A stretch of DNA of 64,000 nt, from the NCBI GenBank assembly GCA_041662125.1, contig JBAZTA010000001.1:259118-323117 (forward strand). Direction: 5' to 3'. The translations under genes and the position numbers were made by a program. The notes under the pieces are model-generated. The model was not told the origin of the DNA. It searched no databases and was given only the letters and a program-made list of their open reading frames with translations. Numbering within the stretch: the stretch's first letter is position 1; every line of letters starts with the position of its first letter. Source of the stretch: Candidatus Omnitrophota bacterium. Its GTDB lineage: Bacteria > Omnitrophota > Gorgyraeia > Gygaellales > Profunditerraquicolaceae. Of the stretch, positions 3,538-61,525 are shown in pieces.

Positions 3538-4701
3538 ATGGAAGAACTCCCTAAAGTAAAAGAAGAGCTCGAACGCACCAAAAACGAACTCACCATCCTC
3601 TATGAGATCTCCAATGCCATGAGGACCACCCTTAAACTTGATGAGATCCTCTACATCATTGTTACCGGAGTTACCGCGCATATCGGATTAGGTTTCAACC
3701 GGGCGTTGCTTTTCCTCGTCAATGAAAAAGAAAACCTTATCGAAGGAAAAATGGCGATCGGGCCGGAAAGCGGCGAAGAAGCAAACAGTATCTGGAGGTA
3801 TATCGAAGAGGAAAAGATGGATTTAGATGACCTCATCAACGCCTATAAATCAAGCCACCCCGCTCCGGAAACCGGTTTTAACCGTGAAATGAAACAACTC
3901 AGGTTTTCTTTAAATGACCAGAAAGAACGCCTCTTGACCATGGCGGTCCTGGAAGGGATGCCTTTACATCTCACTAAAGAATCTATCCAAAACTATAAAC
4001 AGGACCCTATTATTCAATTATTGAACACAGATGAACTTGTGGTCGTGCCATTACGGGCAAAAGATAAAATAAACGGAATTATCCTTGCTGACAACTGTAT
4101 TACCAAAAAACCTATCACCAAAGATAACCTCAGAATGCTTATTATGCTCTCAAACCAGGCTGGCCTGGCGATTGAAAATTCCCAGCTTTATGAAAAAGCA
4201 GTCATCCGCGCGCACTCTGATTCCCTGACAGAACTTTGGAACCACGGGTACTTCCAGTATCTGCTGGGGGTCGAAGTAGAAAAAGCAAAAGCAACCTCAA
4301 GTGCTTTTAGCCTTATCATGGTCGATATCGATGATTTTAAGATTTATAATGACATGCTCGGGCATCAGGCAGGAGACCTGATCTTAAAAGAATTAGCCTC
4401 CCTGCTTAAGAATCAATCACGAAAAATGGACCATGTCTGCCGTTACGGCGGTGAAGAATTTACCATTATCCTGCCGCAGACAGATAAAAAAGAAGCCTTC
4501 TTTATTGCAGAACGCCTGCGTGAAAATATCGAAAAGTATCCTTTTACCCATCGTGAAAAGCTGCCTAAGAAAAACCTCACCGCCAGTATCGGCCTTGCAA
4601 CATTCCCTGAAAACGGCGAGTCCGCACCTGAAATCCTTGCCTATTCCGATAAAGCCCTCTACGAAGCCAAGAAAAAAGGCAAAAATAACACCTGCGGGTA
4701 G
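3538..4701 (+). CDS. GAF-domain diguanylate cyclase (GGDEF, GGEEF active site with RxxD I-site)
   Basis: N-terminal GAF-like region followed by the RYGGEEF motif, with RKMD five residues upstream. Confidence 0.85.
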   Translation: MEELPKVKEELERTKNELTILYEISNAMRTTLKLDEILYIIVTGVTAHIGLGFNRALLFLVNEKENLIEGKMAIGPESGEEANSIWRYIEEEKMDLDDLINAYKSSHPAPETGFNREMKQLRFSLNDQKERLLTMAVLEGMPLHLTKESIQNYKQDPIIQLLNTDELVVVPLRAKDKINGIILADNCITKKPITKDNLRMLIMLSNQAGLAIENSQLYEKAVIRAHSDSLTELWNHGYFQYLLGVEVEKAKATSSAFSLIMVDIDDFKIYNDMLGHQAGDLILKELASLLKNQSRKMDHVCRYGGEEFTIILPQTDKKEAFFIAERLRENIEKYPFTHREKLPKKNLTASIGLATFPENGESAPEILAYSDKALYEAKKKGKNNTCG

Positions 4702-4730
4702 ATCCTTTTATTAAAACATCAAGTCTGGAA

Positions 4731-4790
4731 ATAAAAAGACCGGGTCTTAACTTGTAACTTTTCATTACAGATAAAACCCGGTCTTAAAAT
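4731..4790. terminator. Bidirectional rho-independent terminator hairpin (aagaccgggtctt...acccggtctt)
   Basis: Convergent gene ends (GGDEF on +, smc on -). A 10 bp perfect stem is flanked by A- and T-runs. The same palindromic arm is reused at 10357..10408. Confidence 0.6.
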
Positions 4791-4796
4791 ATACTT

Positions 4797-7700
4797 TTAC
4801 GCCGCCACTGCCTCTTTATTCTCTTCCTTGACCGCCGCCGGCTTATCTGCCGCAAACTTTACCGAAACGATCTTTGAAATACCAGACTCAACCATCGTAA
4901 TGCCATACATAACATGAGCATTGGCAATCGTACGCTTATTATGAGTAATGACAATAAACTGCGAAGTATTGGTGAAATCCTGGAAAAGCCGGCTAAAGCG
5001 GTCGACATTGGCCTCATCAAGAGCGGCATCAATTTCGTCTAAGATACAAAACGGAGCCGGCTTTACTTTAAATATTGCGAAGATAAGCGCTATTGCCGAT
5101 AAGGATTTCTCACCGCCTGAAAGTAAGAGCACATTCTGCAGCTTCTTGCCCGGAGGACGGCAGATGATCTCAATACCGGATTCCAAAGGATCCTGCTCAT
5201 CGATCAAATACACTTTCGCGTCACCGCCGTTAAAGAGCAACCGGAAATAATTCCTGAATTCCTCTGCTACTTTCTCAAAGGTCTCCAGGAACATCTTTCG
5301 GGTCGTGCGGTTGATCTTGTGTATTGCATCCTGGATCGAACTCTTGGCAGTAGCAAGGTCATTCTGCTGTTGAGTTAGAAAATCGTAACGTTTCTTCAAT
5401 TCATCGTATTCCTCGATCGCTACCAGATTTACCGTACCATATGAATCTATTTTTGATTTTAATGAATCAATCTCCTGGCCAAGTACGATCTCATCGATCT
5501 GCTCATCAACCATCGCAGGCTCAAGATTCTTTGCTTCAGTCACCGGCTGCTGGTTTTCCGCAGACACTTGTTCTTGAAGCACACCTTCCTGGGGAACTAC
5601 TTGGGCCGTATCTAAATCGATCTTATAAACCTGCAGGAGCCGTTCCTTAATGCTCATGTATTTAAAATCAAAGTCCTTTTCCTCCATCTGCAGGGAGTAC
5701 AATGTATCCTTTAAGACATCAATCCTTTTACGCTGGTTTTCGATGGCTTCCGATAACTGGCGGACACTGCCGGAAATCTCCCCATACCGGGTTTCTTCTT
5801 CATCTAAAGAACTGCGGCGGGCAACACAGTCGCTTTGTTCCTGCGCGATTTTCTCCGTTAATGAGGCGCTTTCCAGCTCAAGTGAGCTTTTACGGCTCAG
5901 GTTATCCTGGATCTGTTTTTCCAGATTGAGGATGTTTTCTTTATTATGATTATACGCATCTTCCAGAAGCTTGAGCGTATTGTCTTCGGTGCCTAAACGC
6001 CTGGATAAAGCCTCCAGCTCTGTTTTTGTCTTAGTTATCACCACCACGATCTCTTCCTTGATTGCGACATTTGCGTTAACCTTTTCCTGATGGCTATGGA
6101 TCAAGGACTCCTGGTCTTTTTGTAGTTTATCCAATTCGGCGAAATGCGTTTCACAAGAAGCCGATTTTTCATCAAGGCTTAAAAGTTCATTCCGCACATC
6201 GGACAATTCCAAAGCAATGATCTCTTCTTCCTCTTTGACTTTATTGAATTGTTCTAATGCCGCCTGGTGAAACGTATTCTTGTTGCCCAGAGCTAATTCC
6301 TGCTCCTGGGCCTTTTCCTCAAATTCCTTGATAGAAGCGGCTAATTCCTGCGTATGTTTTTCTTTCGCTGACTTGTCATTACGCAGCTCTACCAGCCTCT
6401 CTTCAAGCTGTGCTATCTTTTCACTGACCCGCACAGCATCTAAATCAATAGGCTTAGCCTCGCCTGCCAGCTTAAACCGCGCATCCTGCTGTTGGCCGTC
6501 CTGAGCTCCATTGCAATAATCTTTAACTTTGATCACCAGCCCGGTGATTTTCTCAAGCGGCATCTGATCCAGGTAAATCTCTGCGTTGAGGGAGGTATCA
6601 ATACTCTCATATTGGGTTTTAAGCTTCTCAAGGAATTCCCTATGCGACTCAAGCGCTGATTTCTGGCGTTCCAGGTTTTCCAAGTCAGTATGCAACTGCG
6701 CCAAAGAAGCTTTTTCCTGAACCAATGCTTGGCTTAACTGCGCCTCTTGCAATGTCAAAACCTGTAATACCTCCTGGACCTGTTTTAATTCTATATCCAG
6801 GCTGTTTAAATTCCCTTCAATGACCGCACGCTCTTCAGACACCTTAGCTTTTTCAATATCAAGCCGTTTTGAACGGGCAAGCACGACTTGTTTTTTCGAA
6901 GTAACATCAATAATATCGTTCTTGGCGAGGCTTGCCTTCGCAGCCAAATCCATGATAGCAGCTTTTGCCTGAGCTATTGTTTCTAAAGCGGCCTGCGTGG
7001 AAACGAGCAGGTCATTAAATTGCGCCTCTTTCTCTCTGAGTAAAATTGTTTTCTCCTCATAATGAGTGCGGATGGTCAACTCTTCTTCTTTAAGTTTACT
7101 TAATTTCTCTTCATCCAGCAAAAGCCTGGCCCTGGTCTGCTCAACCTGGGTTTCCAGGTACGCCTTGGCCTTTTCCATCTCCTTTAACCGCTCCTGATTG
7201 AAGGTTATATGCTGTTCATCGTGTGACAGGCTGTTTTCTAACGATAAAACCTGATTTCTAATTGCCGCGATCTTATTCTCTAGATCCCGCGCCTCCTGAT
7301 TACGCGCTTCAATCGCGCCTTCTGATTCCTGGATCGCATGATGCAAAGCCTCTTCTTCGTTCTTAAAAGCCGTAAGCTGGGACAACAGTTCATCGCGCTC
7401 TTTATTGAGCTTCTTTTTCTGGCAAAGTGCTCGTTTTATTTCTTTAGCCTTTAATATTTCAAACGCTTCTTTATACTTGCGCGCCTTATTTGCCTGGCGC
7501 TCAAGGTATCCGATGGAACGCTTTACTTCGGAAATAATATCGTTGACGCGAAGCAGGTTCTGTTCAGTCTCTTCAAGCCTGCGCAACGCCTCTTTCTTTT
7601 GCACCTTGTAACGGGTAATACCGGCCGCCTCATCAAAAACCATCCGGCGGTCTTCCGGGCGGGAACTTAATACCAGGTCAATCTTTCCCTGCGCGATCAA

Positions 7701-8117
7701 TGAATAACTTTCAGCTCCGATTCCTGTGCCCATCAAGAGGTCTAAAATATCTTTCAGGCGCGCAGTCGATTTATTTAAAAGGTATTCGCTCTCACCCGAC
7801 CTGAAGATCCTGCGGGTAATAACAACTTCTCTATGCTCTACCGGAAAAAATTTATTCTCATTATCAAACGTCAGGCTTACTTCAGCCATGCCCAGCGGCG
7901 GCTTGGAATCTGTCCCATTGAAAATAACGTCTTCCATCTGCGAGCCGCGCAGCGACTTAACCGACTGCTCGCCTAATACCCAGCGGATAGAATCAAAAAT
8001 ATTAGACTTTCCGCATCCATTAGGGCCGACAATAGCAGTTACCCCCGGCTCGAAATTGAGCGTGGTTTTTTCCATGAATGACTTAAACCCGACAAGTTCT
8101 AATTTTTTAAAATACAT
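4797..8117 (-). CDS. smc: Chromosome partition protein SMC
   Basis: N-terminal Walker A GPNGCGKSN, long coiled coils, a hinge, and a C-terminal LSGGEK signature with Walker B. Confidence 0.9.
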   Translation of the reverse strand: MYFKKLELVGFKSFMEKTTLNFEPGVTAIVGPNGCGKSNIFDSIRWVLGEQSVKSLRGSQMEDVIFNGTDSKPPLGMAEVSLTFDNENKFFPVEHREVVITRRIFRSGESEYLLNKSTARLKDILDLLMGTGIGAESYSLIAQGKIDLVLSSRPEDRRMVFDEAAGITRYKVQKKEALRRLEETEQNLLRVNDIISEVKRSIGYLERQANKARKYKEAFEILKAKEIKRALCQKKKLNKERDELLSQLTAFKNEEEALHHAIQESEGAIEARNQEARDLENKIAAIRNQVLSLENSLSHDEQHITFNQERLKEMEKAKAYLETQVEQTRARLLLDEEKLSKLKEEELTIRTHYEEKTILLREKEAQFNDLLVSTQAALETIAQAKAAIMDLAAKASLAKNDIIDVTSKKQVVLARSKRLDIEKAKVSEERAVIEGNLNSLDIELKQVQEVLQVLTLQEAQLSQALVQEKASLAQLHTDLENLERQKSALESHREFLEKLKTQYESIDTSLNAEIYLDQMPLEKITGLVIKVKDYCNGAQDGQQQDARFKLAGEAKPIDLDAVRVSEKIAQLEERLVELRNDKSAKEKHTQELAASIKEFEEKAQEQELALGNKNTFHQAALEQFNKVKEEEEIIALELSDVRNELLSLDEKSASCETHFAELDKLQKDQESLIHSHQEKVNANVAIKEEIVVVITKTKTELEALSRRLGTEDNTLKLLEDAYNHNKENILNLEKQIQDNLSRKSSLELESASLTEKIAQEQSDCVARRSSLDEEETRYGEISGSVRQLSEAIENQRKRIDVLKDTLYSLQMEEKDFDFKYMSIKERLLQVYKIDLDTAQVVPQEGVLQEQVSAENQQPVTEAKNLEPAMVDEQIDEIVLGQEIDSLKSKIDSYGTVNLVAIEEYDELKKRYDFLTQQQNDLATAKSSIQDAIHKINRTTRKMFLETFEKVAEEFRNYFRLLFNGGDAKVYLIDEQDPLESGIEIICRPPGKKLQNVLLLSGGEKSLSAIALIFAIFKVKPAPFCILDEIDAALDEANVDRFSRLFQDFTNTSQFIVITHNKRTIANAHVMYGITMVESGISKIVSVKFAADKPAAVKEENKEAVAA

Positions 8118-8207
8118 TGTCCTGCTCCTTTTGTATCCAGTATATAGTATATCGATATGAAAATTTTGTAAAGGTTATTTTCGACAATTCTTTCAACCTG
8201 CTTCAAT

Positions 8208-9557
8208 TTAAATTTTGGTTATCGTAAAATAATAAATATCGTTAAACGCGTCGCTCTCAACGCTCAAAGAAAACTTTTTGATCCCTGAATCATAAAACAA
8301 ATGCACCACCTCATCTTTACTGCGTTCCACAAACTTCCAATTACAGAACCAATCCGGAGACAGCAGAGAAAACGTTTTTTCTTTATTCTTATGGGTCAGG
8401 ATCAATTTCCCTTTTTCTTTCAGGCAGCCATAAAAATACTCAACGAACATTTTTAACGCCTTATCAGGAAGATAATCAATATACCCCAGGCTGTAAGCAA
8501 TATCCTGTTGTTCAAACAGGGGCAGCCCACCATCCTTGATAAGCCGTTTAATATCTTGATGAATAAAATTAAACTTCACGGACAAGGGGATATCCTTGAG
8601 AGCCTGTTTTGAAAATTCCAATGCCGCGGGATCCGCGTCCAAACAGCTCAAAAAAACATTTTTCCCGGTATATATTTCCCCTGGCAGTTCCCTGATCTCC
8701 CTGCAGGAACCACAAACAATATTTAATATTTTGATGCCGGGGGTCGGCGGCGCGTTATGAATCTGGTTTCCAATAAGTTCCCGCAGCTTATCTTTACGGT
8801 AGCGCACGGCAACCGCATAGGGGCTGTTCAAAAAATATTTATCGAAACACAAAGCAATACCGCCAGAGGCAAGCGGTTTATTATCGTATATAGTTTCCAG
8901 CATTTCAAAATCTCCGGGATACTCCCGCGGCTGTTCAAAAGCTTTTTTGAGTATCGGGCTTTTATACGCCCAGGTCCCGACTAAGAACCTAAAGAAATCC
9001 TTATTCTTTCCGGTAACACTTTCATTCTCAATGATCTCTTCCAAACAATACCCTTTAAGCAGGACCTGATTATTCAAATGGGTAAATGACGCTTCTATTT
9101 CAGGAGAATACGCCTCTTGCTTTGCCAGTTGCGCAATGAGCCTGCCGATTTCATTGGTGTATTCCAGCATATCCTTTAAAAAGAAACGCGTTATATCTTC
9201 TTTGGTTTTCTCATCGCTTACTTCATCAAGCAGGCTGCTGATCTGGGCCTTGATCAATGCTTTTCTAAGAGCTGCTTTTTGCGTTTCCTCCAGAGCAATG
9301 AACTCGACACCGTACGCGGAACCTCCGGAAAGGATATCGCGCTGCCAGACCAGGCGCGCGTCGCTTTTAAGTTCAAATTCCTTGCCGGGGAATTGGACAC
9401 GCAACGTGATCCGGGGGCTGGAAATAGTTTCCGTCGCATTAAAACTTAAACCCCCTTCGCTTATATTTGTTGCATCCGAAACCTGATCGGCGACACTCAA
9501 TTTCAAAGCTGTTTTAACACGGGGATGCGACCTTTTCTCATCCATACTCTTATTCAC
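8208..9557 (-). CDS. PilZ-domain protein fused to a class I SAM-dependent methyltransferase-like domain
   Basis: N-terminal PilZ motifs (RxxxR, then DATNISEGG). C-terminal MTase motif I ILNIVCGSC, post-I CLDAD and motif II-like QDIAYSLGYIDYL. GTG start after a GGAGGG SD. Confidence 0.6.
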   Translation of the reverse strand: MNKSMDEKRSHPRVKTALKLSVADQVSDATNISEGGLSFNATETISSPRITLRVQFPGKEFELKSDARLVWQRDILSGGSAYGVEFIALEETQKAALRKALIKAQISSLLDEVSDEKTKEDITRFFLKDMLEYTNEIGRLIAQLAKQEAYSPEIEASFTHLNNQVLLKGYCLEEIIENESVTGKNKDFFRFLVGTWAYKSPILKKAFEQPREYPGDFEMLETIYDNKPLASGGIALCFDKYFLNSPYAVAVRYRKDKLRELIGNQIHNAPPTPGIKILNIVCGSCREIRELPGEIYTGKNVFLSCLDADPAALEFSKQALKDIPLSVKFNFIHQDIKRLIKDGGLPLFEQQDIAYSLGYIDYLPDKALKMFVEYFYGCLKEKGKLILTHKNKEKTFSLLSPDWFCNWKFVERSKDEVVHLFYDSGIKKFSLSVESDAFNDIYYFTITKI

Positions 9558-9572
9558 CAGCCACCCTCCTCT

Positions 9573-9947
9573 TTAATCAAGGATCTTATGAACAATATCG
9601 AGGAATTTACGGTTATCAAACGGTTTATACATATACTCTTTCACCTTCAATTTCATGGCAGCTTCATATTTATCAATATCCGCGTACCCGGTGATCATGA
9701 TCTCAGGGACAGCCGGCTTACCCGCATGCTTACGGTATTCGCGGATCTTTTTTATCATTTCAACGCCATCCATACCCGGCATCCTGACATCAGTAATGAT
9801 CAGGTCAAAATCATCTTTTTTGATCACATCCAGCGCGTCTTCCCCGCTTTCAGCGACTTCCGCGATAAACCCTTGTTTTTGCAGTAATTTAACCAGCGTC
9901 TTTGAAACTAACGGCTCATCATCAACGATCAGGATATGTTTTGCCAT
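9573..9947 (-). CDS. Single-domain response regulator (CheY-like REC)
   Basis: ILIVDDEP and DLIITDVRMPGMDG phospho-acceptor motifs with a conserved K. No output domain. Confidence 0.85.
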   Translation of the reverse strand: MAKHILIVDDEPLVSKTLVKLLQKQGFIAEVAESGEDALDVIKKDDFDLIITDVRMPGMDGVEMIKKIREYRKHAGKPAVPEIMITGYADIDKYEAAMKLKVKEYMYKPFDNRKFLDIVHKILD

Positions 9948-9949
9948 AA

Positions 9950-10171
9950 TTAAACCACTCCTTTTTCCTGATATTTAGAGCTCATCTTCTGCTCCATCCA
10001 GGCATCAATTTTATCTTTCTGAAAACGCCACTGGCCCACCAATTTAAGCGCGGGGATCTTGTCATGTTTGAGCCAGTCATAAATCGTCCTGCGGCTGATT
10101 TTAAGATATTTCTTTAGATCATCGATCGTCATTAAAGACTCAATAGTATTCATCACATTTACCTCACTCAT
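9950..10171 (-). CDS. Excisionase/MerR-like HTH DNA-binding protein (helix_turn_helix_17-like)
   Basis: The MTIDDLKKYLKISRRTIYDWLKHDKIPALKLVGQWRF core. The ORF's N-terminal extension to 10285 lies inside the promoter, so the real start is taken as ATG 10171 (leaderless, at the TSS) or ATG 10153 (GAGGT SD). Confidence 0.6.
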   Translation of the reverse strand: MSEVNVMNTIESLMTIDDLKKYLKISRRTIYDWLKHDKIPALKLVGQWRFQKDKIDAWMEQKMSSKYQEKGVV

Positions 10172-10178
10172 GAACTTA

Positions 10179-10206
10179 ATTATATTACTAAATTTATACT
10201 TGTCAA
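10179..10206 (-). promoter_or_regulatory. Consensus sigma70 promoter (TTGACA, 16 nt spacer, TATAAT)
   Basis: Perfect -35 and -10 hexamers immediately upstream of the Xis-HTH / REC / PilZ-MTase operon. Confidence 0.6.
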
Positions 10207-10356
10207 TATAAATATATTCATTCTTATGCAGAAGTGTGCAAAATGAGCTTATTAGTGCTAAGATATGCAGATTTATGCAATACACCTCGCCTTAATTGAA
10301 AAGGCGAGTGTCTGCTTTCTGCAGTAGAAGGTCGCACCGCGGGTGTAAACAACAAT

Positions 10357-10408
10357 CAAGACCGGGTCTTGGCTGTAATAAAAAAATACCAGTTAAGACC
10401 CGGTCTTG
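10357..10408 (-). terminator. Long terminator hairpin built on the aagaccgggtctt palindrome
   Basis: About 18 bp stem (caagaccgggtcttggctg with cagttaagacccggtcttg) around an A-rich loop, downstream of the PilZ gene at 10473..10820. Confidence 0.5.
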
Positions 10409-10472
10409 AAATATGAACTATCGACTATGGACTACTTCTGTATTGTGATTTGTGTGATGAATGTGCAAAAGA

Positions 10473-10820
10473 CTAATATCGGGAGCGGACTTGGATGGAA
10501 CGCAGTATCAAGGGAATAGGCTTTAGTTCAGGGGCATCAAGAGCAACACCAATGCGATAACGGGCAGGCGCCAGACAATTATTCCAGACGACTTTACCAG
10601 TCGTAATGATCCTTTCTCCATTGTCGGGCATGCACAATTGCACGTCAACCGTCACTCCTGGGGCTAGTTGTTCTTTAGTTTCCAGCCCCATCCCTCTGTT
10701 GCTTATATCAAAGGTATTAACCCAGGCACCTTTTAATGAGCGGATCGTAAGGTACATGAGCGGTATCGCTACCGGAAACCTAGCGTAACTTCTTCTTTCT
10801 TTATTTTCCCATTCGGTCAT
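10473..10820 (-). CDS. Single-domain PilZ protein (c-di-GMP receptor-like)
   Basis: RRSYARFPV followed by DISNRGMG, which are the RxxxR and DxSxxG motifs. Confidence 0.75.
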   Translation of the reverse strand: MTEWENKERRSYARFPVAIPLMYLTIRSLKGAWVNTFDISNRGMGLETKEQLAPGVTVDVQLCMPDNGERIITTGKVVWNNCLAPARYRIGVALDAPELKPIPLILRSIQVRSRY

Positions 10821-10937
10821 AGTATGATTTTAAGTTTATAGATTTCTTAGAAATGGTTCGTCGCTTTAAATATACGCTACACAGCAATGAATTTCAAGGG
10901 TATTTTCAGGGTTTTTGAAAGCGCTTTCAAAATAAGA

Positions 10938-10976
10938 CAAAAAAAGCATAACTATTCTATTTACAATAAGTTATGC
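10938..10976 (-). terminator. Rho-independent terminator downstream of etfA
   Basis: An 8 bp stem (gcataact / agttatgc) followed by a T-run on the minus strand. A perfect 20 bp palindrome, ttttgaaagcgctttcaaaa, sits nearby at 10913..10932. Confidence 0.55.
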
Positions 10977-11002
10977 GTTTGTTCACAACCTTATATAACA
11001 AG

Positions 11003-12205
11003 CTATTTTTTAAGATTTTCTTTAAACTTTTTTGTTAACGCAGGCAGGATTTGAAAAATATCCCCGACAATCCCATAGGTAGCAACCTTGAAGATCGGAG
11101 CGTCAGGGTCTTTATTAATGGCAATAATGATCTTTGATGACTGCATACCGACTAAATGTTGTATCTGTCCGGAAATACCACAGGCAATATATATTTTCGG
11201 GGCAACCGTCCTGCCGGTCTGGCCTACCTGATGAGAATATGGCAGCCACCCGGAATCAACTGCCGCCCGCGATGCCCCAACAGCACCACCCAAAACATGG
11301 GCAAGTTCTTCCAAAAGCTTGAAATTCTCAGGCCCACCCATACCTCTTCCGCCAGATACGATAATATCAGCTTCAGCTATATTCACCAGGCTCTCAACTT
11401 CTTCCACGATATCCAGAAGTTTCGTGCGTGATACGTATAACGACGCCTCAAAATTTTCTTTTATAATCTTACCTTTTCGGTGTTTATCAGGAGCCATCGG
11501 CTGCATGACTTTGTGCCGCACGGTTGCCATCTGCGGGCGGTGATTCGGGCTTATAATGGTAGCCATGATGTTTCCGCCGAATGCCGGACGGGTCTGCAAC
11601 AATATCTTTTTCTGAGGGTCAATATCAAGGCCGGTGCAATCCGCGGTCAAGCCAGCGTCAACAGTAATAGCGACACGTGACACCAACGACCTGCCGATAG
11701 CGGTTGCCCCGCAAAGCACGACCTCAGGCTTATATTTTTCGACCAACTTGACTAAGATATTTGTATACGGTTCATCCTGGAAATTTGCCAATTCAGGGGC
11801 CTGGACCAAGTAAATATTATCCGCGCCATGCCAGATCAATTCATCAAGCTGGTCATCAAGCTCATTGCCGATCAATACGCCGCTTACCTGCGTATTGAGT
11901 TTCGCTGCCAATTCATGCGCTTTTCCCAAAAGCTCATACGCGACGGATTGGATCTTGCCGTTTTTCTGTTCGATAAAAACCCATACACCCTTATAATCTT
12001 TAATGTCAGGCAGCGCGCGCTTGCTTTGCGGCTTCTCTAAAAGTATTGCTTTAAATTTACACGCAGGCACACACGCTCCGCAAAGGGTACATGTATTCAA
12101 ATCTATCGATGCCTTTTTATCCATAATACGGATAGCGTCAAAAGGGCATACTTTCACGCACAAGGTACAACCGGTGCACTTTTCTAAGATAAGCTGTATC
12201 GGCAT
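11003..12205 (-). CDS. etfA: Electron transfer flavoprotein alpha subunit with N-terminal 2x[4Fe-4S] ferredoxin domain
   Basis: Two CxxCxxCxxxCP clusters in the first 60 aa, then an ETF-alpha FAD-binding domain. Confidence 0.85.
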   Translation of the reverse strand: MPIQLILEKCTGCTLCVKVCPFDAIRIMDKKASIDLNTCTLCGACVPACKFKAILLEKPQSKRALPDIKDYKGVWVFIEQKNGKIQSVAYELLGKAHELAAKLNTQVSGVLIGNELDDQLDELIWHGADNIYLVQAPELANFQDEPYTNILVKLVEKYKPEVVLCGATAIGRSLVSRVAITVDAGLTADCTGLDIDPQKKILLQTRPAFGGNIMATIISPNHRPQMATVRHKVMQPMAPDKHRKGKIIKENFEASLYVSRTKLLDIVEEVESLVNIAEADIIVSGGRGMGGPENFKLLEELAHVLGGAVGASRAAVDSGWLPYSHQVGQTGRTVAPKIYIACGISGQIQHLVGMQSSKIIIAINKDPDAPIFKVATYGIVGDIFQILPALTKKFKENLKK

Positions 12206-12206
12206 T

Positions 12207-12989
12207 TTAATTAACCTCGTTTTTTATTAAATCCACTAATTGCGTGGCTACGTCTAACGCCTCACCTTTAAGCATAACTCCGCCTGCCCGCTGAGCAGGT
12301 GTAAATATCTTCAACACTTGTGTCGGAGAACCGCATAACCCGATTTTCTGAGGGTCTAAATTAAGCTCTTTTTGCGTCAACACCGTGATTTTTGCAGACT
12401 TTGCCTTCATCATCCCTTTTAAAGATGGTAGGCGCGGCTCATTGATCTCTTTTACTACGGTCAAGAGTACGGGAAGCGGCGTTTCAATGACTTCATAACC
12501 TTCTTCCATCATGCGTTCAACCTTCATTTTATTTCCGGTAACTTCTTCGATCTTCTTCACGTAGGTAACCTGCGGGATATCTAAATGGGTGGAAATCCCG
12601 GGGCCGACCTGCGCGGTGTCTCCGTCAGAAGCCTGTTTGCCGCACAAAATAATATCGAATACACCTATTTTCTTTATGGCGCCTGCCAAGGTATAACTTG
12701 TCGCCCATGTGTCGCTTCCGGCGAACGCGCGGTCACAAACCAAAACCCCTTCATCTACACCCAACGATATCGCTTCCCGCAGCGCGGCTTCTGCCTGAGG
12801 AGGGCCCATGGTAACCACAGTTATTTTTCCGCCTAATTTTTCTTTCAGGCGCACACTTTCTTCAATCGCGTACATATCAAACGGATTTATGATCGCTTTT
12901 ACCCCTTCACGAATAAGGGTATTGGTTTCCGGATTAATTTTTACTTCAGTTGTTTCAGGGACCTGTTTGATACAAACAATGATATTCAT
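12207..12989 (-). CDS. etfB: Electron transfer flavoprotein beta subunit
   Basis: ETF-beta fold (MNIIVCIKQVPE...) immediately upstream of etfA. Confidence 0.85.
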   Translation of the reverse strand: MNIIVCIKQVPETTEVKINPETNTLIREGVKAIINPFDMYAIEESVRLKEKLGGKITVVTMGPPQAEAALREAISLGVDEGVLVCDRAFAGSDTWATSYTLAGAIKKIGVFDIILCGKQASDGDTAQVGPGISTHLDIPQVTYVKKIEEVTGNKMKVERMMEEGYEVIETPLPVLLTVVKEINEPRLPSLKGMMKAKSAKITVLTQKELNLDPQKIGLCGSPTQVLKIFTPAQRAGGVMLKGEALDVATQLVDLIKNEVN

Positions 12990-12994
12990 ATATC

Positions 12995-13360
12995 TTATAC
13001 CCCCAAATGTGACTGCATATAATCATCAAGCTTCTTAATATAGCCCTCTTGTATTGAAATAAACTCAGTTCCCACATCATAACGCACTCCGCTGGCAGGA
13101 TCCCCGATCACAAATTCCTTGACCCAGACGACTTTCGCAGTCGCGGTAATGGGAAGCTTCTCTCCCGGGAGAAATATCTTTAGATCAATAACATCAGATT
13201 CATTAAGTTTCTCATACCCGACAAAACAAATACCGCTTTTACTGATATTTCTGGTGCGTGTCAGGTTTTCTGAAGAAGCAATATCCTTTTTTGAGTAAGA
13301 AACATCAACCAGGATATTAAGCCGCGAAAACTTTCTGCGTTCTCCCCCGAGATCCATCAT
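12995..13360 (-). CDS. Single-domain PilZ protein embedded in the acd-etfBA operon
   Basis: RRKFSRLNI followed by TRNISKSGICF, between acd and etfB with intergenic gaps under 30 nt. Confidence 0.7.
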   Translation of the reverse strand: MMDLGGERRKFSRLNILVDVSYSKKDIASSENLTRTRNISKSGICFVGYEKLNESDVIDLKIFLPGEKLPITATAKVVWVKEFVIGDPASGVRYDVGTEFISIQEGYIKKLDDYMQSHLGV

Positions 13361-13388: not shown

Positions 13389-14540
13389 TTATTGAGCAAG
13401 TTCTTTAATGATCTTCAACGCGATGATATTACGCTGAATCTGGTTTGTCCCTTCATAAATCTGGGTGATCTTGGCGTCACGGACATATTTTTCAATAGGA
13501 TAGTCCTTCATATACCCGTATCCGCCGAATATCTGAAGGGCATCAACCGTCACCTTCATTGCCACATCCGAAGCATACATCTTAGCCATTGCCGATTCCT
13601 TAGAAACGTCTTTTATACCGGCATCAACCATTCTGGCAGCAGCATATACCAGGCCGCGGGCAGCTTCTATTTCAGTTGCCATATCCGCGATCATCCACTG
13701 GATCCCTTGAAAACTAGAGATCGATTTCCCAAACTGATGCCTCTCTTTAGCATACTTTACCGACAATTCTAACGCTCCCTGAGCGATCCCTAATGCCTGC
13801 GCGGCTACACCCGGACGGGACATATCAAACGTACGCATTGTCACAATAAACCCCATTCCTTCTTTTGCCAGAAGGTTTTCTTTCGGGATCTTACAATCGG
13901 TGAAAATAAGCTCACGCGTTGAAGACGCGCGAATACCGAATTTGTCCTCTTTTTTCCCGAAGGTAAAACCAGGAGTGCCTTTTTCCACGATAAACGCTGA
14001 AGCACCGCGCGCGCCTTTAGTCTTGTCAGTCATCGCTATCACAACATAGGTTTCAGCATCACCGCCATTGGTAATAAAATGCTTTAACCCGTTTAAAACA
14101 TAGTGTTTTCCTTCTAATCGTGCGGTTGTCTTGATCGCTGAAGCATCAGAACCTGCTTCCGGCTCAGTAATGCCAAACGCGGCAACTTTCTTTCCGCTGG
14201 CTAAATCCGGCAAATATTTCTTCTTCTGAGCATCATTACCAAAAAGGACTATAGGAAACGTCCCTAACGCTGAGGCAGCATAGCAAACCGCGATACCGCC
14301 GCAAGCACGCGATAATTCTTCGGTAGCGATGCATAAATTAAGTACCCCCACCCCCATCCCGCCGTATTCTTCCGGAATAAATAACCCGAATAAACCGCCC
14401 TCAGCGATAACTTTAATGACCTCCCAGGGATACTCCTCTGTCTGGTCATATTTTGCGGCTACCGGCCTTACTTTTTCATCGGAGATCCTACGCGCCAGGT
14501 CCCTTACCATTTTCTGTTCATCTGCAAATAAATAGTCCAT
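13389..14540 (-). CDS. Acyl-CoA dehydrogenase (short-chain, butyryl-CoA dehydrogenase type)
   Basis: ACAD family sequence with a catalytic Glu near the C-terminus (YEGTNQIQ). The start is trimmed to MDYLF, which has an AAGGAGG SD 7 nt upstream. Confidence 0.85.
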   Translation of the reverse strand: MDYLFADEQKMVRDLARRISDEKVRPVAAKYDQTEEYPWEVIKVIAEGGLFGLFIPEEYGGMGVGVLNLCIATEELSRACGGIAVCYAASALGTFPIVLFGNDAQKKKYLPDLASGKKVAAFGITEPEAGSDASAIKTTARLEGKHYVLNGLKHFITNGGDAETYVVIAMTDKTKGARGASAFIVEKGTPGFTFGKKEDKFGIRASSTRELIFTDCKIPKENLLAKEGMGFIVTMRTFDMSRPGVAAQALGIAQGALELSVKYAKERHQFGKSISSFQGIQWMIADMATEIEAARGLVYAAARMVDAGIKDVSKESAMAKMYASDVAMKVTVDALQIFGGYGYMKDYPIEKYVRDAKITQIYEGTNQIQRNIIALKIIKELAQ

Positions 14541-14554
14541 TTGTGAACCTCCTT

Positions 14555-14810
14555 GAGCACCAAAAAGCTTTATACAGCGAAACCCCGCAGAGTGCACAAA
14601 AGAATTTCGAAGAAATTCCTTGTGCGCTTACGAAGCGGGGTAGTTAACCTTTTACTTGAGCACCTTAAAGCTTTATTTAACGAAACCCAACCGAGTATGC
14701 GCAGAAAATTTCCAAAGGAAATTTTGCGCATGTTTACGAGGTGTGGGTTATTACCACATCTTTTCTATCTAGCGAAACTCCGCCACAGAAAATGGCGCAC
14801 TTGGCATTCA
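14555..14810 (-). promoter_or_regulatory. 5' leader of the acd/etf operon containing three tandem structured modules
   Basis: Two full and one partial tandem copies of an approximately 95 nt unit. Each has a near-perfect inner palindrome (tgcgcagaaaatttcc aaa ggaaattttgcgca) and a covarying outer stem. The first copy overlaps the acd RBS. Confidence 0.5.
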
Positions 14811-18110: not shown

Positions 18111-18164
18111 CCTTTCTGATTACTTATATTATACTTGAGCGCTCAAGCATTGTCAAGAAGTATT

Positions 18165-19187: not shown

Positions 19188-19334
19188 AACAGCCCTCCCT
19201 TGGTTAAAATGCTTGCATCTGATATTATCAGCATACTTGCAAGCAAGCATTTTGTCAAGTAAAATTATTCTAAATAATTAAAAAATAGCTTTTAGGGGAA
19301 TTACTAAACCAGCGAGATTTTGCTGCTTTTACAG

Positions 19335-19604
19335 TTATTTCTTTACGGCGTTTTGCGGAGTGCTTTGGATAGGATTATTTTGTTGCATTGATACAGGTTG
19401 AGTCATTTCGATTTTAGTTTCTAAACATGCTATCTTTATATTCATAGTCATTAACCAAACAAAAATTGTACCTATAGCTGATGCAGCTATTATCACTATT
19501 GTTGAAAAAGTTTTATCGGAAACTTTTTTATCAATTTTTGCGTCAAGTTCCTTTCTAAGGTCATTGACTTCTTCACGAGAACTGAACGATTTATTTTCGG
19601 CCAT
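19335..19604 (-). CDS. Small hypothetical membrane protein (one TM helix)
   Basis: 89 aa with a charged N-terminal region followed by one hydrophobic helix. Sits in the low-GC island. Confidence 0.4.
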   Translation of the reverse strand: MAENKSFSSREEVNDLRKELDAKIDKKVSDKTFSTIVIIAASAIGTIFVWLMTMNIKIACLETKIEMTQPVSMQQNNPIQSTPQNAVKK

Positions 19605-48729: not shown

Positions 48730-48957
48730 CTATTTCTTGAGGAATTTATCGCTGAAACTGTCAATCTGTTTCTGCAGGCTCATCAGGCTTTCTTCAAGGC
48801 GCTGATTTGAGCGAATGATCCCGAGGTTAGAATTAACGATATCCTGATTGTTTTGGTTACTTAAAACCAAACGGCTTTCCAGAATATTTAATTTTAGTAA
48901 TACCATGACTAAAACCAGGGCGATTATGGCTTGCAGGATAACATTCACGAATTTCAT
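48730..48957 (-). CDS. Small hypothetical membrane protein
   Basis: 75 aa with one N-terminal TM helix and a coiled-coil-like C-terminal tail. Confidence 0.35.
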   Translation of the reverse strand: MKFVNVILQAIIALVLVMVLLKLNILESRLVLSNQNNQDIVNSNLGIIRSNQRLEESLMSLQKQIDSFSDKFLKK

Positions 48958-48980: not shown

Positions 48981-49364
48981 CTAGAACTGAGGTTTTTTAA
49001 AAAGAGCTTTATCTTTTATACCCGCGCAAATCCTGTTTTGGATCCAATTTACAATGGTAACCACTTCTTCCTTGGGGGCATCAACAAATTCTATCCCAAG
49101 GATAAAACCAGACACATCACGCACTTTCTTTTCTTTAATATTCTTTATTTTACCAGTACCTGCAAACCGTTTATCGAGTACATCTATTTTTACTTCAAAA
49201 TCGACCTTAGAATCAACGGGGATAATATCTTTTAAAAATATTCCCATACCTTTAAAACCTATATTCACGAGTTCAACGGTAAGATCTTTCGGCTCACTAT
49301 TTACCGACTTAATAACGACGCTTCCGCTCACATCATACCGTATGTAATATCTTCGTTCCTGCAT
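48981..49364 (-). CDS. Single-domain PilZ protein
   Basis: RRYYIRYDV followed by LVNIGFKGMGI. Confidence 0.7.
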   Translation of the reverse strand: MQERRYYIRYDVSGSVVIKSVNSEPKDLTVELVNIGFKGMGIFLKDIIPVDSKVDFEVKIDVLDKRFAGTGKIKNIKEKKVRDVSGFILGIEFVDAPKEEVVTIVNWIQNRICAGIKDKALFKKPQF

Positions 49365-51002: not shown

Positions 51003-51479
51003 TTACTCAAGGATAAATTCGTTTGACTTCGCCGTATTCCAAACTATTCCGTTGAGGCTATTATTCTTTTTGACTCCAAATATAATGGTTAATCGATACG
51101 TACCAGGCGCCGGGACAGGAGAAAGTTTTTTCATATAAATAGACGGTTTCCAAAGAAAACTCAAAACCTCTCCAGCAGCGATTTCTTTTAGTTCTAAAAC
51201 ATCATCCTTACATCCCAACCCGCGGCAGCGTGTCGGGAATGCATCCCAGGTCAACGCGGTCCGTTTTTTTTCAAAGTTTGAAATAGCAAACTCCGGAGTA
51301 GCTGTTGCAGCCGCTGAAAGAATACCGGTTTTGCGTTCATTAGCGATACTTACCTTTATTTTCTCTTTGCGCGCATAAGCAGTCTTATCAGTTGTCACGA
51401 GTACCTCTTGAGCATAAACACTCCTCAAGAAAATAATACTTATCACAATGAGAAAAAACGAGCCCCTAGGTTTTATCAT
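51003..51479 (-). CDS. Hypothetical secreted protein
   Basis: Signal-peptide-like N-terminus (MIKPRGSFFLIVISIIFLRSVYAQE). No recognisable domain. Confidence 0.4.
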   Translation of the reverse strand: MIKPRGSFFLIVISIIFLRSVYAQEVLVTTDKTAYARKEKIKVSIANERKTGILSAAATATPEFAISNFEKKRTALTWDAFPTRCRGLGCKDDVLELKEIAAGEVLSFLWKPSIYMKKLSPVPAPGTYRLTIIFGVKKNNSLNGIVWNTAKSNEFILE

Positions 51480-51822
51480 TGGATGAAACGCCCTTTTGAA
51501 CCCCATCGATAATCCGTTGAATTATTGTCCCATCAACCTTGGTGAATTCAACACCAATGCGAAACAACTGCTTACCGTCTTTTTCTAAGGCGAGAGAATA
51601 TTTGATCTTCCCAATCCCGATCAGGGACTTTTCAAGGAACTTATTTATCAGGATAAAATCGGCTTCCGCTCCAACCGGCAGGTTTTCTTGCGCGTACGCT
51701 CCAACACCTAAAGCACAAATATCCACTAACTCCCCCCGGATAGTACGGGACATATCGCTCTTCAACTTAATAATTATCTGCCCTTCAACCGTATACCGTC
51801 TGTATTTACGCTGTTCTTCCAT
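51466..51822 (-). CDS. Single-domain PilZ protein
   Basis: RKYRRYTVEG followed by LVDICALGVGA. Confidence 0.7.
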   Translation of the reverse strand: MEEQRKYRRYTVEGQIIIKLKSDMSRTIRGELVDICALGVGAYAQENLPVGAEADFILINKFLEKSLIGIGKIKYSLALEKDGKQLFRIGVEFTKVDGTIIQRIIDGVQKGVSSNDKT

Positions 51823-55267: not shown

Positions 55268-55801
55268 TTAAAAGCGGGTTTTGAAAACGTAAGTAAATCC
55301 ACCTTTGCTGAATTCAGGCTTACCTTTAAGCTTAAACACTCTTACACTACATTTATCTTTAACCCACGCCTCAACTTCTTTCGCTTTATAATACGGGGAC
55401 CAAATATCGATCCCAAATACCTTTGCCCACTCTTGGCGTATCATCTTTTCTTCGCTTACCTTTGGCGTATTATAGAACGAGCGAAATGCCTGACGGCTGG
55501 CGGCGATAGTGTCGCTGCGTCCTTGCTCCAAGTATTCTCTCGGCAACAATTGAAATTGCGGCCACTGCACAGGCTTATCCATGAAATCATCGGAGTTATC
55601 ATAGAGATGCTCAAGGATTTTTTCTCGAGGCTCTATAACATTATTTTTCATTATGATGATTTTCTCAAGAGCTACGATATTCTCTCTTGATAAGAAGCCA
55701 TACGGGATTTTTGGGTTAACAAAAGCATCCTGAGCAGCAAGAGGCACAGTGAGATACCCAATTAAACATACTAAGACTACTACTCTGATAATCAAATGCA
55801 T
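55268..55801 (-). CDS. Hypothetical secreted protein
   Basis: Start MHLIIRVVVLVCLIGYLTVPLAAQDA (signal peptide) with a GGAGGG SD. Confidence 0.45.
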   Translation of the reverse strand: MHLIIRVVVLVCLIGYLTVPLAAQDAFVNPKIPYGFLSRENIVALEKIIIMKNNVIEPREKILEHLYDNSDDFMDKPVQWPQFQLLPREYLEQGRSDTIAASRQAFRSFYNTPKVSEEKMIRQEWAKVFGIDIWSPYYKAKEVEAWVKDKCSVRVFKLKGKPEFSKGGFTYVFKTRF

Positions 55802-56069
55802 CGCGCCCTCCGGAAACAAAAAAACCTATTCTCAAAAGAATAGGTTTGCAAAATGCGGTGTTTACTTCGGCAACCCAGCTGCCTTTCTTTAGATCAAGTG
55901 AAGGCCTGTGGCTTTGCGTCCTACCCTTTCGGGAAGTTTGCCTTTTCGTTCATTTTATGACATAACTTCTTAGTTTCTAAACAGTTTACTCCTAATTAAA
56001 ATATAACATATAATCGAACATATTACCATGTCGCTTGGCAAGTAAATTAATAGATACGAGTCTTCACCT

Positions 56070-58159: not shown

Positions 58160-61525
<3,366 letters not shown>

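Follow-up and report, generated by a model that had tools for sequence, protein, structure and literature searches.

A probable mosaic of c-di-GMP modules in a Candidatus Omnitrophota genome, with a PilZ gene recurring in acd-etfBA operons

The window, by which we mean the whole 64-kb stretch of DNA analysed here, carries five PilZ genes: four that stand alone and one that is fused to a methyltransferase. An initial annotation had spoken of five single-domain genes plus the fusion; five is the right number only when the fusion is counted among them. Every open reading frame it listed was found again at its position, next to the neighbours it had named (acd, etfB, etfA, pgi, FKBP/slyD and the deacetylase). 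With Pfam PF07238 at its threshold of 22.5 bits, four of the five PilZ domains are called and the one at 51466..51822 falls short with 16.8 bits; a six-frame scan of the window with a local PilZ profile returned no further PilZ. RxxxR is present in all five, as had been claimed, but the canonical D/NxSxxG motif in only three, the genes at 48981 and 51466 having NIGFKG and DICALG instead. The reported GGDEF cyclase at 3538..4701(+) (NCBI MFA6216252.1) is an intact GAF-GGDEF protein (GGDEF, 156.7 bits) whose active site reads GGEEF and whose I-site, RKMD, lies five residues before it; it probably makes c-di-GMP. Among the open reading frames of at least 90 aa that were judged to be genes, the set that was scanned, none has an EAL or HD-GYP domain. 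The window also contains a c-di-GMP-I riboswitch, which the initial annotation had missed. As an illustration of density, five PilZ genes in 64 kb would be unremarkable only if a genome of 1.5-2.5 Mb carried roughly 40-60 or more; the local density, which had been called exceptional, may be ordinary for the source organism. A phylogeny of the paralogs, which had been proposed as a check, gave four separate clades (A-D) rather than one expansion once every PilZ hit had been aligned and placed in a neighbour-joining tree.

The clade-A gene (12995..13360(-); NCBI MFA6216260.1; PilZ, 43.7 bits), whose product has 100% identity to an NCBI protein encoded on a 646-kb contig of a Candidatus Omnitrophota MAG, lies inside an operon-like array. 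It follows acd (13389..14597(-)), an acyl-CoA dehydrogenase gene with the N, M and C Acyl-CoA_dh domains whose start is probably internal, since relatives have 383-385 aa, and precedes etfB (12207..12989(-); ETF, 167.3 bits) and etfA (11003..12205(-)). The successive gaps measure 28, 5 and 1 nt, a consensus scan of the coding strand reported nothing terminator-like at any of the three junctions, and a promoter-like site for acd lies at 14943-14916(-); the PilZ gene would accordingly be read together with acd, etfB and etfA on one transcript. EtfA is CarE-like and begins with a 2x[4Fe-4S] ferredoxin domain (Fer4, ETF and ETF_alpha in Pfam). Its best PDB match is CarE (6fah), aligned over the full length including the ferredoxin domain (E 5.6e-128), followed by 7koe, 5ol2, 4kpu and 7qh2, so that the top five are all bifurcating Etfs. 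The products of the three enzyme genes most probably form an acyl-CoA dehydrogenase/Etf complex that carries out flavin-based electron bifurcation in the manner of CarCDE or Bcd-EtfAB.

A search with EtfB retrieved 80 related loci at 64-93% identity, and a clade-A PilZ gene sits between acd and etfB at more than 35 independent Omnitrophota loci. These include 4 of 72 GTDB species loci, two other lineages of NCBI MAGs (L001-L005) and 32 metagenome contigs, both flanks being readable in 26; the same arrangement is seen in loci L001-L006, L008, L012 and L065. Relative to the window, EtfB identity in the metagenome loci ranges from 64 to 94% and that of PilZ goes down to 33%, with R[KR][FY]xR and NIS(K/Q)GG retained. 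The clade-A alignment has no exception at R9, R13 or G43 and hardly any to NIS(K/Q)GG. The association also survives rearrangement, because the gene is found 3' of etfA in L027 and L058 and as tandem duplicates in L097, L103 and L144. In the remaining 68 of the 72 GTDB species loci, acd directly abuts etfB; the PilZ protein is missing from most close relatives and is therefore dispensable for the Acd/Etf complex. An EtfB neighbour-joining tree, drawn without support values, suggests an ancestral gain of the operonic PilZ gene followed by repeated loss. We infer that c-di-GMP-loaded clade-A PilZ is an adaptor that binds the Acd/EtfAB complex and tunes its activity or assembly, in the way familiar from stand-alone PilZ proteins elsewhere.

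The second tie to an enzyme is covalent. The gene at 8208..9557(-) (NCBI MFA6216254.1; likely start ATG at 9545) encodes an N-terminal clade-C PilZ domain (33.5 bits) joined to a methyltransferase through a helical domain, an order of PilZ barrel, helical domain and Rossmann methyltransferase that the AlphaFold model reproduces (pLDDT 84.9). The family is large: at least 216 homologs, each of about 450 aa, match over the full length, 204 cluster representatives reach E<=1e-30, and none of 35 aligned sequences departs from R9, R13 or G36. Methyltransferase families stay below the Pfam threshold in the window protein, whose motif I reads CGSCRE and not GxGxG. Foldseek matches it to small-molecule class I methyltransferases (3ocj, SgvM/MrsA, SibL, CurJ C-MT, PigF, CmoA), and judged by the model it seems to belong with these and not with the enzymes of central metabolism. 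Coupling of a PilZ domain to an enzyme, as the initial annotation had it, thus holds for this gene, but its assignment to central metabolism does not.

A single-domain response-regulator receiver (REC) gene (9573..9947(-); Response_reg, 101.7 bits) lies 15 nt upstream. REC is also directly 5' of the fusion gene in L086, L087, L088, L089 and L090, which represent three unrelated neighbourhoods, and the two are fused in frame in P0163, P0183 and a 583-aa protein of L001; PilZ-PilZ-methyltransferase and PilZ-less forms occur as well. Upstream of REC, relatives have a 7TM-GAF kinase that is absent from the window. A two-component pathway is probable in which the 7TM-GAF histidine kinase of the relatives would signal to REC, with the PilZ-methyltransferase as the output enzyme. 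Two inputs would probably act together on its SAM-dependent domain, which presumably uses a small-molecule acceptor: phosphorylation of REC, and c-di-GMP bound to the N-terminal PilZ domain. Upstream of REC lies an HTH_17 DNA-binding protein (9950..10285(-); HTH_17, 56.8 bits, residues 51-100). Relatives have 59-67 aa, and the true gene is probably about 59-73 aa long, shorter than the mechanical open reading frame, within which a perfect TTGACA-16-TATAAT falls at 10206-10179(-).

What kind of system do these components form? Taken as a whole, they are best explained as a mosaic of independent modules and not as one system, a reading we hold to be reasonably probable, and the ties to enzymes are convincing for two PilZ domains only, those of the Acd/Etf operon and of the methyltransferase fusion. 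The foremost competitor, which we consider unlikely, is neutral scatter: many small, fast-evolving PilZ genes would come to rest beside housekeeping genes and have no functional tie to them. It draws on West-Roberts et al. (bioRxiv 10.1101/2023.11.21.568195), who report small pilZ homologs by most Omnitrophota giant genes, and on a further stand-alone PilZ gene beside murB and mazG in L086; it would also fit the absence of the operonic PilZ from most GTDB relatives and the narrow distribution of clades B and D described below. Against scatter speak the persistence of clade A in the acd-etfB slot at more than 35 independent loci with its binding motifs conserved while EtfB diverges to 64%, its staying with the operon when its position shifts, and the fusion of REC with the PilZ-methyltransferase in some genomes. 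Moreover, in 1.1 Mb of flanking sequence from 80 species, all PilZ matches fall either at acd-etf hot spots or in the fusion.

The clade-B gene (10473..10820(-); PilZ, 38.8 bits), with canonical RxxxR and DISNRG, is preceded by a promoter-like site (10897-10869) and followed by terminator-like hairpins (10404-10357). It looks monocistronic from these signals and would be a free-standing receptor with its own transcription. A PilZ gene follows etfA in just 12 of 64 species loci, most of them with clade B and two (L027 and L058) with clade A. In many loci clade B lies immediately 5' of HTH_17, which invites another reading: that the stretch from 3.5 to 10.8 kb is a chromosome-organisation module uniting the clade-B PilZ, HTH_17, SMC and the convergent GGDEF gene, with adjacency to etf incidental. 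Gene order lends it something, as 27 of 28 Omnitrophota species loci have smc and GAF-GGDEF in convergent order and 14 of 30 have HTH_17 immediately 5' of smc, and so does the c-di-GMP-binding nucleoid protein CdbA of Myxococcus with the PilZ protein CdbS (PMC10313047); the likeness would be one of analogy rather than of sequence. However, clade B adjoins etfA equally, and since etfA lies less than 3 kb from smc in 25 of 30 loci, position separates neither reading from the other. We rate the chromosome module as quite improbable.

What, then, of the PilZ genes beside pgi and slyD? Both belong to clade D and are paralogs with 29% identity. The first (D1; 48981..49364(-); PilZ, 32.8 bits) has RRYYIR and, with Gly in place of Ser, NIGFKG; the second (D2; 51466..51822(-)) has RKYRR and, with Cys in place of Ser, DICALG. 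Despite its sub-threshold score D2 is still a PilZ-fold protein, given its paralogy to D1 and its predicted fold: the AlphaFold model (pLDDT 87.6) has six strands and a C-terminal helix, and Foldseek places the YcgR PilZ domain 5y6g at the top (TM 0.72), then BcsA, MotI and MrkH, with Alg44 also matched. As the motif Ser is Gly or Cys in the two proteins, c-di-GMP binding by clade D is uncertain. D1 has only 6 homologs, the full-length ones with 74-78% identity and the same synteny, and clade D as a whole is confined to these close relatives apart from one 41% match. D1 is followed after 23 nt by a 75-aa open reading frame with an N-terminal hydrophobic helix (48730..48957(-)), which has no Pfam match and is called as a gene at the matching position in relatives, and then, about 34 nt on, by pgi. 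Directly 3' of D2 lies an uncharacterised protein (51003..51506(-)), likewise without a Pfam match, whose N terminus resembles a signal peptide if an internal Met is the start; relatives have a 158-aa gene there.

Farther along, a c-di-GMP-I (GEMM-I) riboswitch aptamer at 55866..55952(-) matches Rfam RF01051 over the full-length model with 81 bits against a threshold of 35. Between it and an ATG at 55801 an intrinsic terminator-like hairpin (AAACCTATTC / GAATAGGTTT) with a T-run is found at 55814..55847(-), and in an alternative fold GGGUAGG of the aptamer pairs with the 5' arm of the terminator. Going by a minimum-free-energy fold with a z-score of only -0.9, the element is probably an OFF switch acting through the terminator on a 177-aa open reading frame (55268..55801(-)) that has a signal-peptide-like N terminus and no Pfam match.

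The initial annotation took the PilZ genes by pgi and slyD as further cases of c-di-GMP effectors wired broadly into central metabolism. Some features are in keeping with this, namely the tight spacing of D1, the 75-aa frame and pgi, the retention of this order in relatives, and the location of the set 5' of dus, PCC and a giant glycolytic fusion of 2791 aa (aldolase-TIM-phosphoglucomutase). The synteny is uninformative, however, because it comes from relatives with 74-78% identity whose gene order agrees from end to end. The canonical Ser is missing from both clade-D proteins, and slyD is on the opposite strand. In a compact genome with nearly all genes on one strand, any small gene will adjoin a housekeeping gene. 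The other neighbours are a deacetylase with a signal peptide, the secreted 158-aa protein, the 75-aa membrane protein, a TRL lipoprotein and the riboswitch-controlled secreted protein, all with signal-peptide-like, lipobox-like or membrane-helix sequences; with most of the neighbours exported or in the membrane, a place next to pgi or slyD adds nothing as independent evidence. The clade-D paralogs and the riboswitch would rather belong to a neighbourhood of exported or envelope proteins, and surface-related functions are a classical output of c-di-GMP. We strongly doubt the broad wiring: a tie to central metabolism is supported for the gene at 12995 alone, in its recurrent acd-etfB slot, and not for those at 10473, 48981 and 51466. 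We also consider it very improbable that the operonic PilZ has become a structural or assembly part of the Acd/Etf complex that no longer responds to c-di-GMP, like a non-binding Xanthomonas PilZ. The motif Ser is Gly in some clade-A orthologs (L001/P0004, P0008, L110, L124), but neither RxxxR nor the motif Gly varies within the clade, whereas PilZ proteins known not to bind lack these motifs (Galperin and Chou, bioRxiv 10.1101/814665).

Finally, we would like to place the mosaic in the context of known systems. Multiple small pilZ homologs are a conserved feature of the giant genes described in the same phylum, where they lie downstream of the giant genes and are linked to GGDEF domains of the giant proteins; acd-etf operons and methyltransferase fusions are not among the contexts mentioned in the accessible text (West-Roberts, bioRxiv 10.1101/2023.11.21.568195). 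The riboswitch is a GEMM-I element, far above threshold and followed by an intrinsic-terminator expression platform, but the gene it controls encodes an uncharacterised secreted protein without a Pfam domain. The fusion resembles BcsA cellulose synthase and Alg44 of the alginate system in joining PilZ covalently to an enzyme or secretion component with strictly conserved binding motifs, as is noted for PilZ fusion proteins generally (Galperin and Chou, bioRxiv 10.1101/814665), in a review that does not list a methyltransferase fusion. Here, by contrast, PilZ is N-terminal and is followed first by a helical stretch some 180 aa long and then by a class I SAM methyltransferase resembling natural-product C- and O-methyltransferases; the family also includes REC-PilZ and PilZ-PilZ forms. 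As in the MapZ-CheR1 system, which works in trans, c-di-GMP, PilZ and a SAM methyltransferase would meet in a single pathway, and a CheY-like receiver is close by. However, the window enzyme is not a CheR: it has no PF01739 match, its best structural matches are small-molecule methyltransferases, and no chemotaxis genes lie near it. The acd, etfB and etfA trio is that of the bifurcating complexes CarCDE of Acetobacterium woodii, Bcd-EtfAB of Clostridioides difficile and Acidaminococcus, and LctBCD, and the likeness to CarE extends to the ferredoxin domain, but none of the matched structures has a PilZ subunit among its chains. The clade-A protein itself resembles the stand-alone adaptors MapZ/PA4608, which acts on CheR1, DgrA and CdbS: it consists of one PilZ domain, about 115-125 aa long, in which RxxxR and D/NxSxxG are present, and it shares a predicted six-stranded barrel with a C-terminal helix, and a function expected from c-di-GMP-dependent partner binding. 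It differs from them in being embedded in the acd-etfBA operon, gene order alone pointing to the partner. Full-text literature searches that combined PilZ with acyl-CoA dehydrogenases, electron transfer flavoproteins or electron bifurcation gave nothing relevant, and no Acd/Etf-type partner of a PilZ protein is on record.

The window encodes five PilZ proteins, and a neighbour-joining tree and alignment of every PilZ found in it and in related loci resolve four clades: A (the protein at 12995–13360), B (10473–10820), C (the N terminus of a PilZ-methyltransferase fusion at 8208–9557) and D (48981–49364 and 51466–51822). Judged by sequence, the genes represent four lineages and not a single expansion. 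The initial annotation was largely right about these c-di-GMP components: all the ORFs it named are present where it placed them, but its tally of five single-domain PilZ genes plus a fusion has to be corrected to four stand-alone genes and one fusion. Measured against the gathering threshold of Pfam PF07238 (22.5 bits), 12995 (43.7 bits), 10473 (38.8 bits), the fusion N terminus (33.5 bits) and 48981 (32.8 bits) pass, whereas 51466 fails at 16.8 bits. The motifs had been called clear in the stand-alone ORFs. This is true of RxxxR, which occurs in all five (RKFSR, RSYAR, RSHPR, RYYIR and RKYRR, in the same order), but the canonical D/NxSxxG is found in only three: NISKSG in 12995, DISNRG in 10473 and NISEGG in the fusion. 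The corresponding stretch reads NIGFKG in 48981 and DICALG in 51466. The exchange of Ser for Gly is also seen in some clade-A orthologs, a clade-D relative with 41% identity keeps DISYGG, and RxxxR is invariant across the alignments of clade A and of the PilZ-methyltransferase proteins.

We count 51466 as a PilZ protein despite its low score, because it is a paralog of 48981 (29% identity) and because its predicted fold matches known PilZ domains. The AlphaFold model (pLDDT 87.6) consists of six strands and a C-terminal helix, and Foldseek aligns it with the PilZ domain of YcgR (TM 0.72), BcsA, MotI, MrkH, PlzA and Alg44. A PilZ fold is thus predicted for both proteins that were modelled, 51466 and the fusion N terminus. 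The clade-D profile gave only marginal matches to PDB sequences (YpfA/MotI, E 0.16), and a local PilZ profile run over all six frames of the window revealed no additional copy.

The strongest link to metabolism is made by clade A. PilZ 12995 lies 28 nt from acd, the acyl-CoA dehydrogenase gene adjoining upstream, and 5 nt before etfB, which is separated from etfA by 1 nt; a consensus scan found no terminator-like sites on the coding strand at the junctions within acd-pilZ-etfB-etfA. EtfA carries Fer4 domains at residues 5–53, and CarE, from the caffeyl-CoA reductase-Etf complex, matches it from end to end with the ferredoxin domain at the N terminus included (E 5.6e-128). The top five PDB matches of EtfA (CarE, 7koe, 5ol2, 4kpu and LctC) are all bifurcating Etfs, which places the predicted Acd/EtfAB complex with the flavin-based electron-bifurcating type (CarDE / Bcd-EtfAB).

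How widely this arrangement is kept can be read from related loci, to which we refer by L-numbers. An EtfB-seeded scan with one genome per species yielded 80 loci, almost all from Omnitrophota, with a common backbone of MarC, glgC, GNAT, acd, etfB, etfA, HTH_17, smc, a convergent GGDEF gene and recA. A PilZ gene occupies the acd/etfB junction in only four of the 72 species loci with a readable junction (L006, L008, L012 and L065). The order acd-PilZ-etfB recurs in two lineages of NCBI MAGs (L001–L004 and L005), and searching metagenomes with the clade-A alignment as seed added 32 contigs that have acd and/or etfB beside PilZ; in 26 of them both sides could be read. Across these metagenome loci, EtfB is 64–94% identical to that of the window, and PilZ identity goes down to 33%; R[KR][FY]xR and NIS(K/Q)GG are nearly universal in clade A. 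Three metagenome contigs have a tandem PilZ pair at the junction (L097, 1269–2143; L103, 3514–4366; L144, 1148–1935), and in L027 and L058 the clade-A gene is placed 3' of etfA instead. Recurrent position and conserved ligand-binding residues together provide good comparative evidence that clade-A PilZ is functionally tied to Acd/EtfAB. By analogy with stand-alone PilZ adaptors, it would bind the complex in a c-di-GMP-dependent manner and thereby tune it.

In the EtfB tree, PilZ-bearing loci are basal in the clade of the window and scattered in its crown, which suggests an old gain of the operonic gene followed by repeated loss; as the tree carries no support values, this reading is tentative. 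Wide acd-etfB or etfB-etfA gaps in relatives contain unrelated ORFs and no PilZ: a 540-aa membrane protein in L083, a pilin-like protein of 162 aa in L058, and proteins of 274–292 aa with no assigned function between etfB and etfA in L062 (10786–11607) and L073 (10779–11654), one of these species being represented by the 1.14-Mb record CP070655.1. The operon therefore tolerates other insertions, as the last case shows. Many GTDB records in the set, L008, L012, L016, L017, L025, L027, L036, L043, L049 and L052 among others, bear the names Planctomycetales, Planctomycetia, Elusimicrobia or Victivallales in their titles. They have the Omnitrophota-type acd-etfBA-smc backbone with EtfB identities of 70–83%, and their titles are probably coarse or wrong taxonomic labels of MAGs.

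The clade-B gene 10473 stands free, with about 180 nt to either neighbour, a promoter-like site on its 5' side and terminator-like hairpins on its 3' side. Of 64 species loci, 12 have a PilZ gene after etfA, in most cases one of clade B, and 10473 can equally well be placed on the etfA side or on the HTH_17/smc/GGDEF side, to neither of which we assign it. On the latter side, a small HTH_17 gene lies immediately 5' of smc in 14 of 30 loci, and the pairing of smc with a convergent GAF-GGDEF gene after it (window 3538–8117; loci L006–L085) is conserved in 27 of the 28 species loci from Omnitrophota. The cyclase itself (3538–4701, +) is confirmed as a predicted GGDEF diguanylate cyclase by its profile score (156.7 bits, PF00990), an intact RYGGEEF active-site motif and an RKMD I-site (RxxD) five residues upstream. 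No EAL or HD-GYP domain was found in those window ORFs of at least 90 aa that were judged to be genes.

The setting of clade D is closer to the surface functions that c-di-GMP usually controls than to metabolism. PilZ 48981 has six homologs, of which the full-length ones are 74–78% identical; these relatives are fully collinear, and synteny with pgi is therefore uninformative. A conserved 75-aa membrane ORF separates 48981 from pgi, and slyD lies on the strand opposite to the clade-D PilZ. Most of the other neighbours show a signal-peptide-like, lipobox-like or membrane-helix sequence; they comprise the deacetylase, the product of the gene after 51466, a secreted 391-aa protein (52075–53250), a TRL lipoprotein and a riboswitch-controlled protein. 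Carbohydrate binding was suspected for the 391-aa protein from a repeated N-terminal motif and was rejected, as it has no Pfam match. Downstream of pgi, a 2791-aa ORF (36925–45300, −) is by its domains a giant multi-enzyme glycolytic fusion of class II fructose-bisphosphate aldolase, triosephosphate isomerase and all four phosphoglucomutase domains; some 500 N-terminal residues and other stretches are without a Pfam match, and the close relative L091 has a 3218-aa version with an extra ROK (sugar kinase) domain.

The same neighbourhood holds a c-di-GMP-I riboswitch (RF01051) at 55866–55952 (−), which is absent from the initial annotation. Its score is 81 bits (threshold 35), and the match spans model positions 1–87 of 87. 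A terminator hairpin with a T-run follows the aptamer (the combined unit spans 55814–55952, −), and then come a GGAGGG ribosome-binding site and the ATG of an ORF at 55268–55801 (−), encoding a secreted protein of 177 aa without a Pfam domain. Covariance score, 5' UTR position and predicted expression platform all identify the element as a putative riboswitch controlling this ORF, and an alternative fold (z-score −0.9) weakly suggests an OFF switch.

The proposal that c-di-GMP effectors are wired into central metabolism thus stands for 12995, with its recurrent position in acd-etfBA, and in modified form for 8208, as a methyltransferase fusion, but is unsupported for 10473, 48981 and 51466. 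As for the density of PilZ genes, the local profile detected 18 in 1.1 Mb of flanking sequence from the 80 species (L065 being re-read), a set of flanks that is not a random genome sample, and all 18 lie at the two etf positions or in the fusion. Iterating the profile gave no larger match set, with the proviso that very divergent flank PilZ could escape detection. PilZ counts in the window and in its closest relatives, L006 and the ENA contig of L089/L091, are therefore among the highest for the region. As a Poisson illustration, five PilZ genes in 64 kb would be unremarkable only if the genome held roughly 40–60 or more. What appears as density is mostly unrelated PilZ lineages side by side.

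A low-GC stretch (0.388) at 17366–20041 separates MarC from truA, which adjoin in L001 and L005; it contains an ORF without assignment, a gene for a P63C-domain protein and what may be a transposase-like fragment. A CAAX-protease-like gene of 494 aa (21075–22559, −) is likewise inserted between truA and asd, and both insertions are probably remnants of mobile DNA. The 23S rRNA gene (58162–61525, −) measures 3364 nt against a model of 2925 positions and includes a sub-threshold match to a group I intron at 58575–58880 (27.8 bits against 50, E 2.5e-4).

The 449-aa fusion of clade C belongs to a family of its own, with at least 216 full-length homologs, almost all from Omnitrophota; searched exhaustively, it yields 204 cluster representatives at E ≤ 1e-30. 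The PilZ-motif residues R9, R13 and G36 are invariant in an alignment of 35 sequences. In the model of the fusion (pLDDT 84.9) the PilZ barrel is followed by some 180 residues of helical structure and then by a Rossmann methyltransferase, whose strands alternate with helices over residues 275–448 and which has more than 1000 Foldseek matches to SAM methyltransferases. The sequence has a variant motif I (CGSCRE) and an invariant D307. Pfam methyltransferase families stay below threshold in the window protein (21.5 versus 27; 18.1 versus 21), and Methyltransf_20 exceeds its threshold (21) in the homologs P0170, P0183 and P0256 and is on record among the Pfam matches of many others. Modelled fold and sequence thus identify the C-terminal part as a predicted class I SAM-dependent methyltransferase.

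A single-domain receiver (REC) gene lies immediately 5' of the fusion in the window, and in three unrelated neighbourhoods a 7TM-GAF histidine kinase is followed by REC and then PilZ-methyltransferase. Family members also occur as REC-PilZ-methyltransferase, PilZ-PilZ-methyltransferase and PilZ-less proteins; a REC-fused form in L001 aligns with the window fusion at E 6e-28. The REC-fused forms argue that phosphorylation and c-di-GMP may jointly gate the methyltransferase. Between HTH_17-REC and PilZ-methyltransferase, the close relative L089 carries genes for aldehyde dehydrogenase, for a 7TM-GAF histidine kinase and for another receiver (5888–9613), and a third receiver gene lies 3' of the fusion; all these extras are missing from the window (9950–9557), so no kinase gene adjoins its pair. 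A perfect sigma-70 consensus (TTGACA, 16 nt, TATAAT) at 10179–10206 (−) falls within a mechanically listed 111-aa HTH_17 ORF. The true HTH_17 gene is probably about 60–73 aa long, as in relatives, and the site is a likely promoter of HTH_17-REC-PilZ-methyltransferase. In L086 and L087 the module adjoins ketosynthase, ACP and FabA/ApeI-like genes, and one source names a homolog after PhcB, a fatty-acid methyl-ester synthase; as hints at the substrate, these are leads only. L086 (the 1.82-Mb record CP070807.1) also encodes a 535-aa response-regulator receiver and ketoacyl-synthase protein (4217–5824), adjoining ACP and two 7TM histidine kinases, just 5' of the REC/PilZ-methyltransferase pair.

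The individual domain calls are not new, since NCBI already annotates such entries as "PilZ domain-containing protein" and "sensor domain-containing diguanylate cyclase" (12995 is identical to MFA6216260.1 of a Candidatus Omnitrophota MAG, the fusion is MFA6216254.1 and the cyclase MFA6216252.1). Small pilZ genes beside Omnitrophota giant genes have already been noted in a 2023 preprint (bioRxiv 10.1101/2023.11.21.568195). Full-text searches that combined PilZ with Etf, with acyl-CoA dehydrogenase or with electron bifurcation, or Omnitrophota with c-di-GMP, returned no earlier description of these findings, and neither the conserved acd-pilZ-etfBA operon nor the REC-PilZ-methyltransferase family appears to have been described before.

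Finally, we would like to place these modules into the context of known c-di-GMP systems. Cells of the uncultured phylum Omnitrophota are very small and may depend on hosts, and next to nothing is known of their regulatory logic. Retention of PilZ in acd-etfBA across dozens of lineages of the phylum offers a concrete and cheaply testable hypothesis on Bcd/Etf-type activity. In its fullest form, which we regard as rather unlikely, the operon of a large clade of Omnitrophota would supply a dedicated PilZ subunit by which c-di-GMP directly controls bifurcating Acd/EtfAB, and REC-PilZ-methyltransferases would integrate phosphorylation and c-di-GMP to govern how a small molecule, perhaps a lipid or polyketide, is methylated. 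If true, this would be the first second-messenger gate on electron bifurcation, acting on the energy yield of fermentation; we know of no earlier case of a nucleotide second messenger in this role. c-di-GMP is known mainly for switching motility, adhesion and exopolysaccharide production, and direct control of core energy metabolism by it at the protein level is, to our knowledge, rare. The REC-PilZ-methyltransferase family would be a clean case of two signal inputs meeting at one enzyme. A MapZ-CheR1 identity for the fusion is ruled out: PF01739 gave no match at E ≤ 1, no CheR is among the top 50 structural matches, and the nearest structures are 3ocj, the alpha-keto-acid C-methyltransferases SgvM and MrsA, SibL, the CurJ C-MT, PigF and CmoA. 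The analogy therefore fails as a claim of membership; in contrast to MapZ-CheR1, the fusion lacks a CheR domain, and its methyltransferase resembles small-molecule enzymes.
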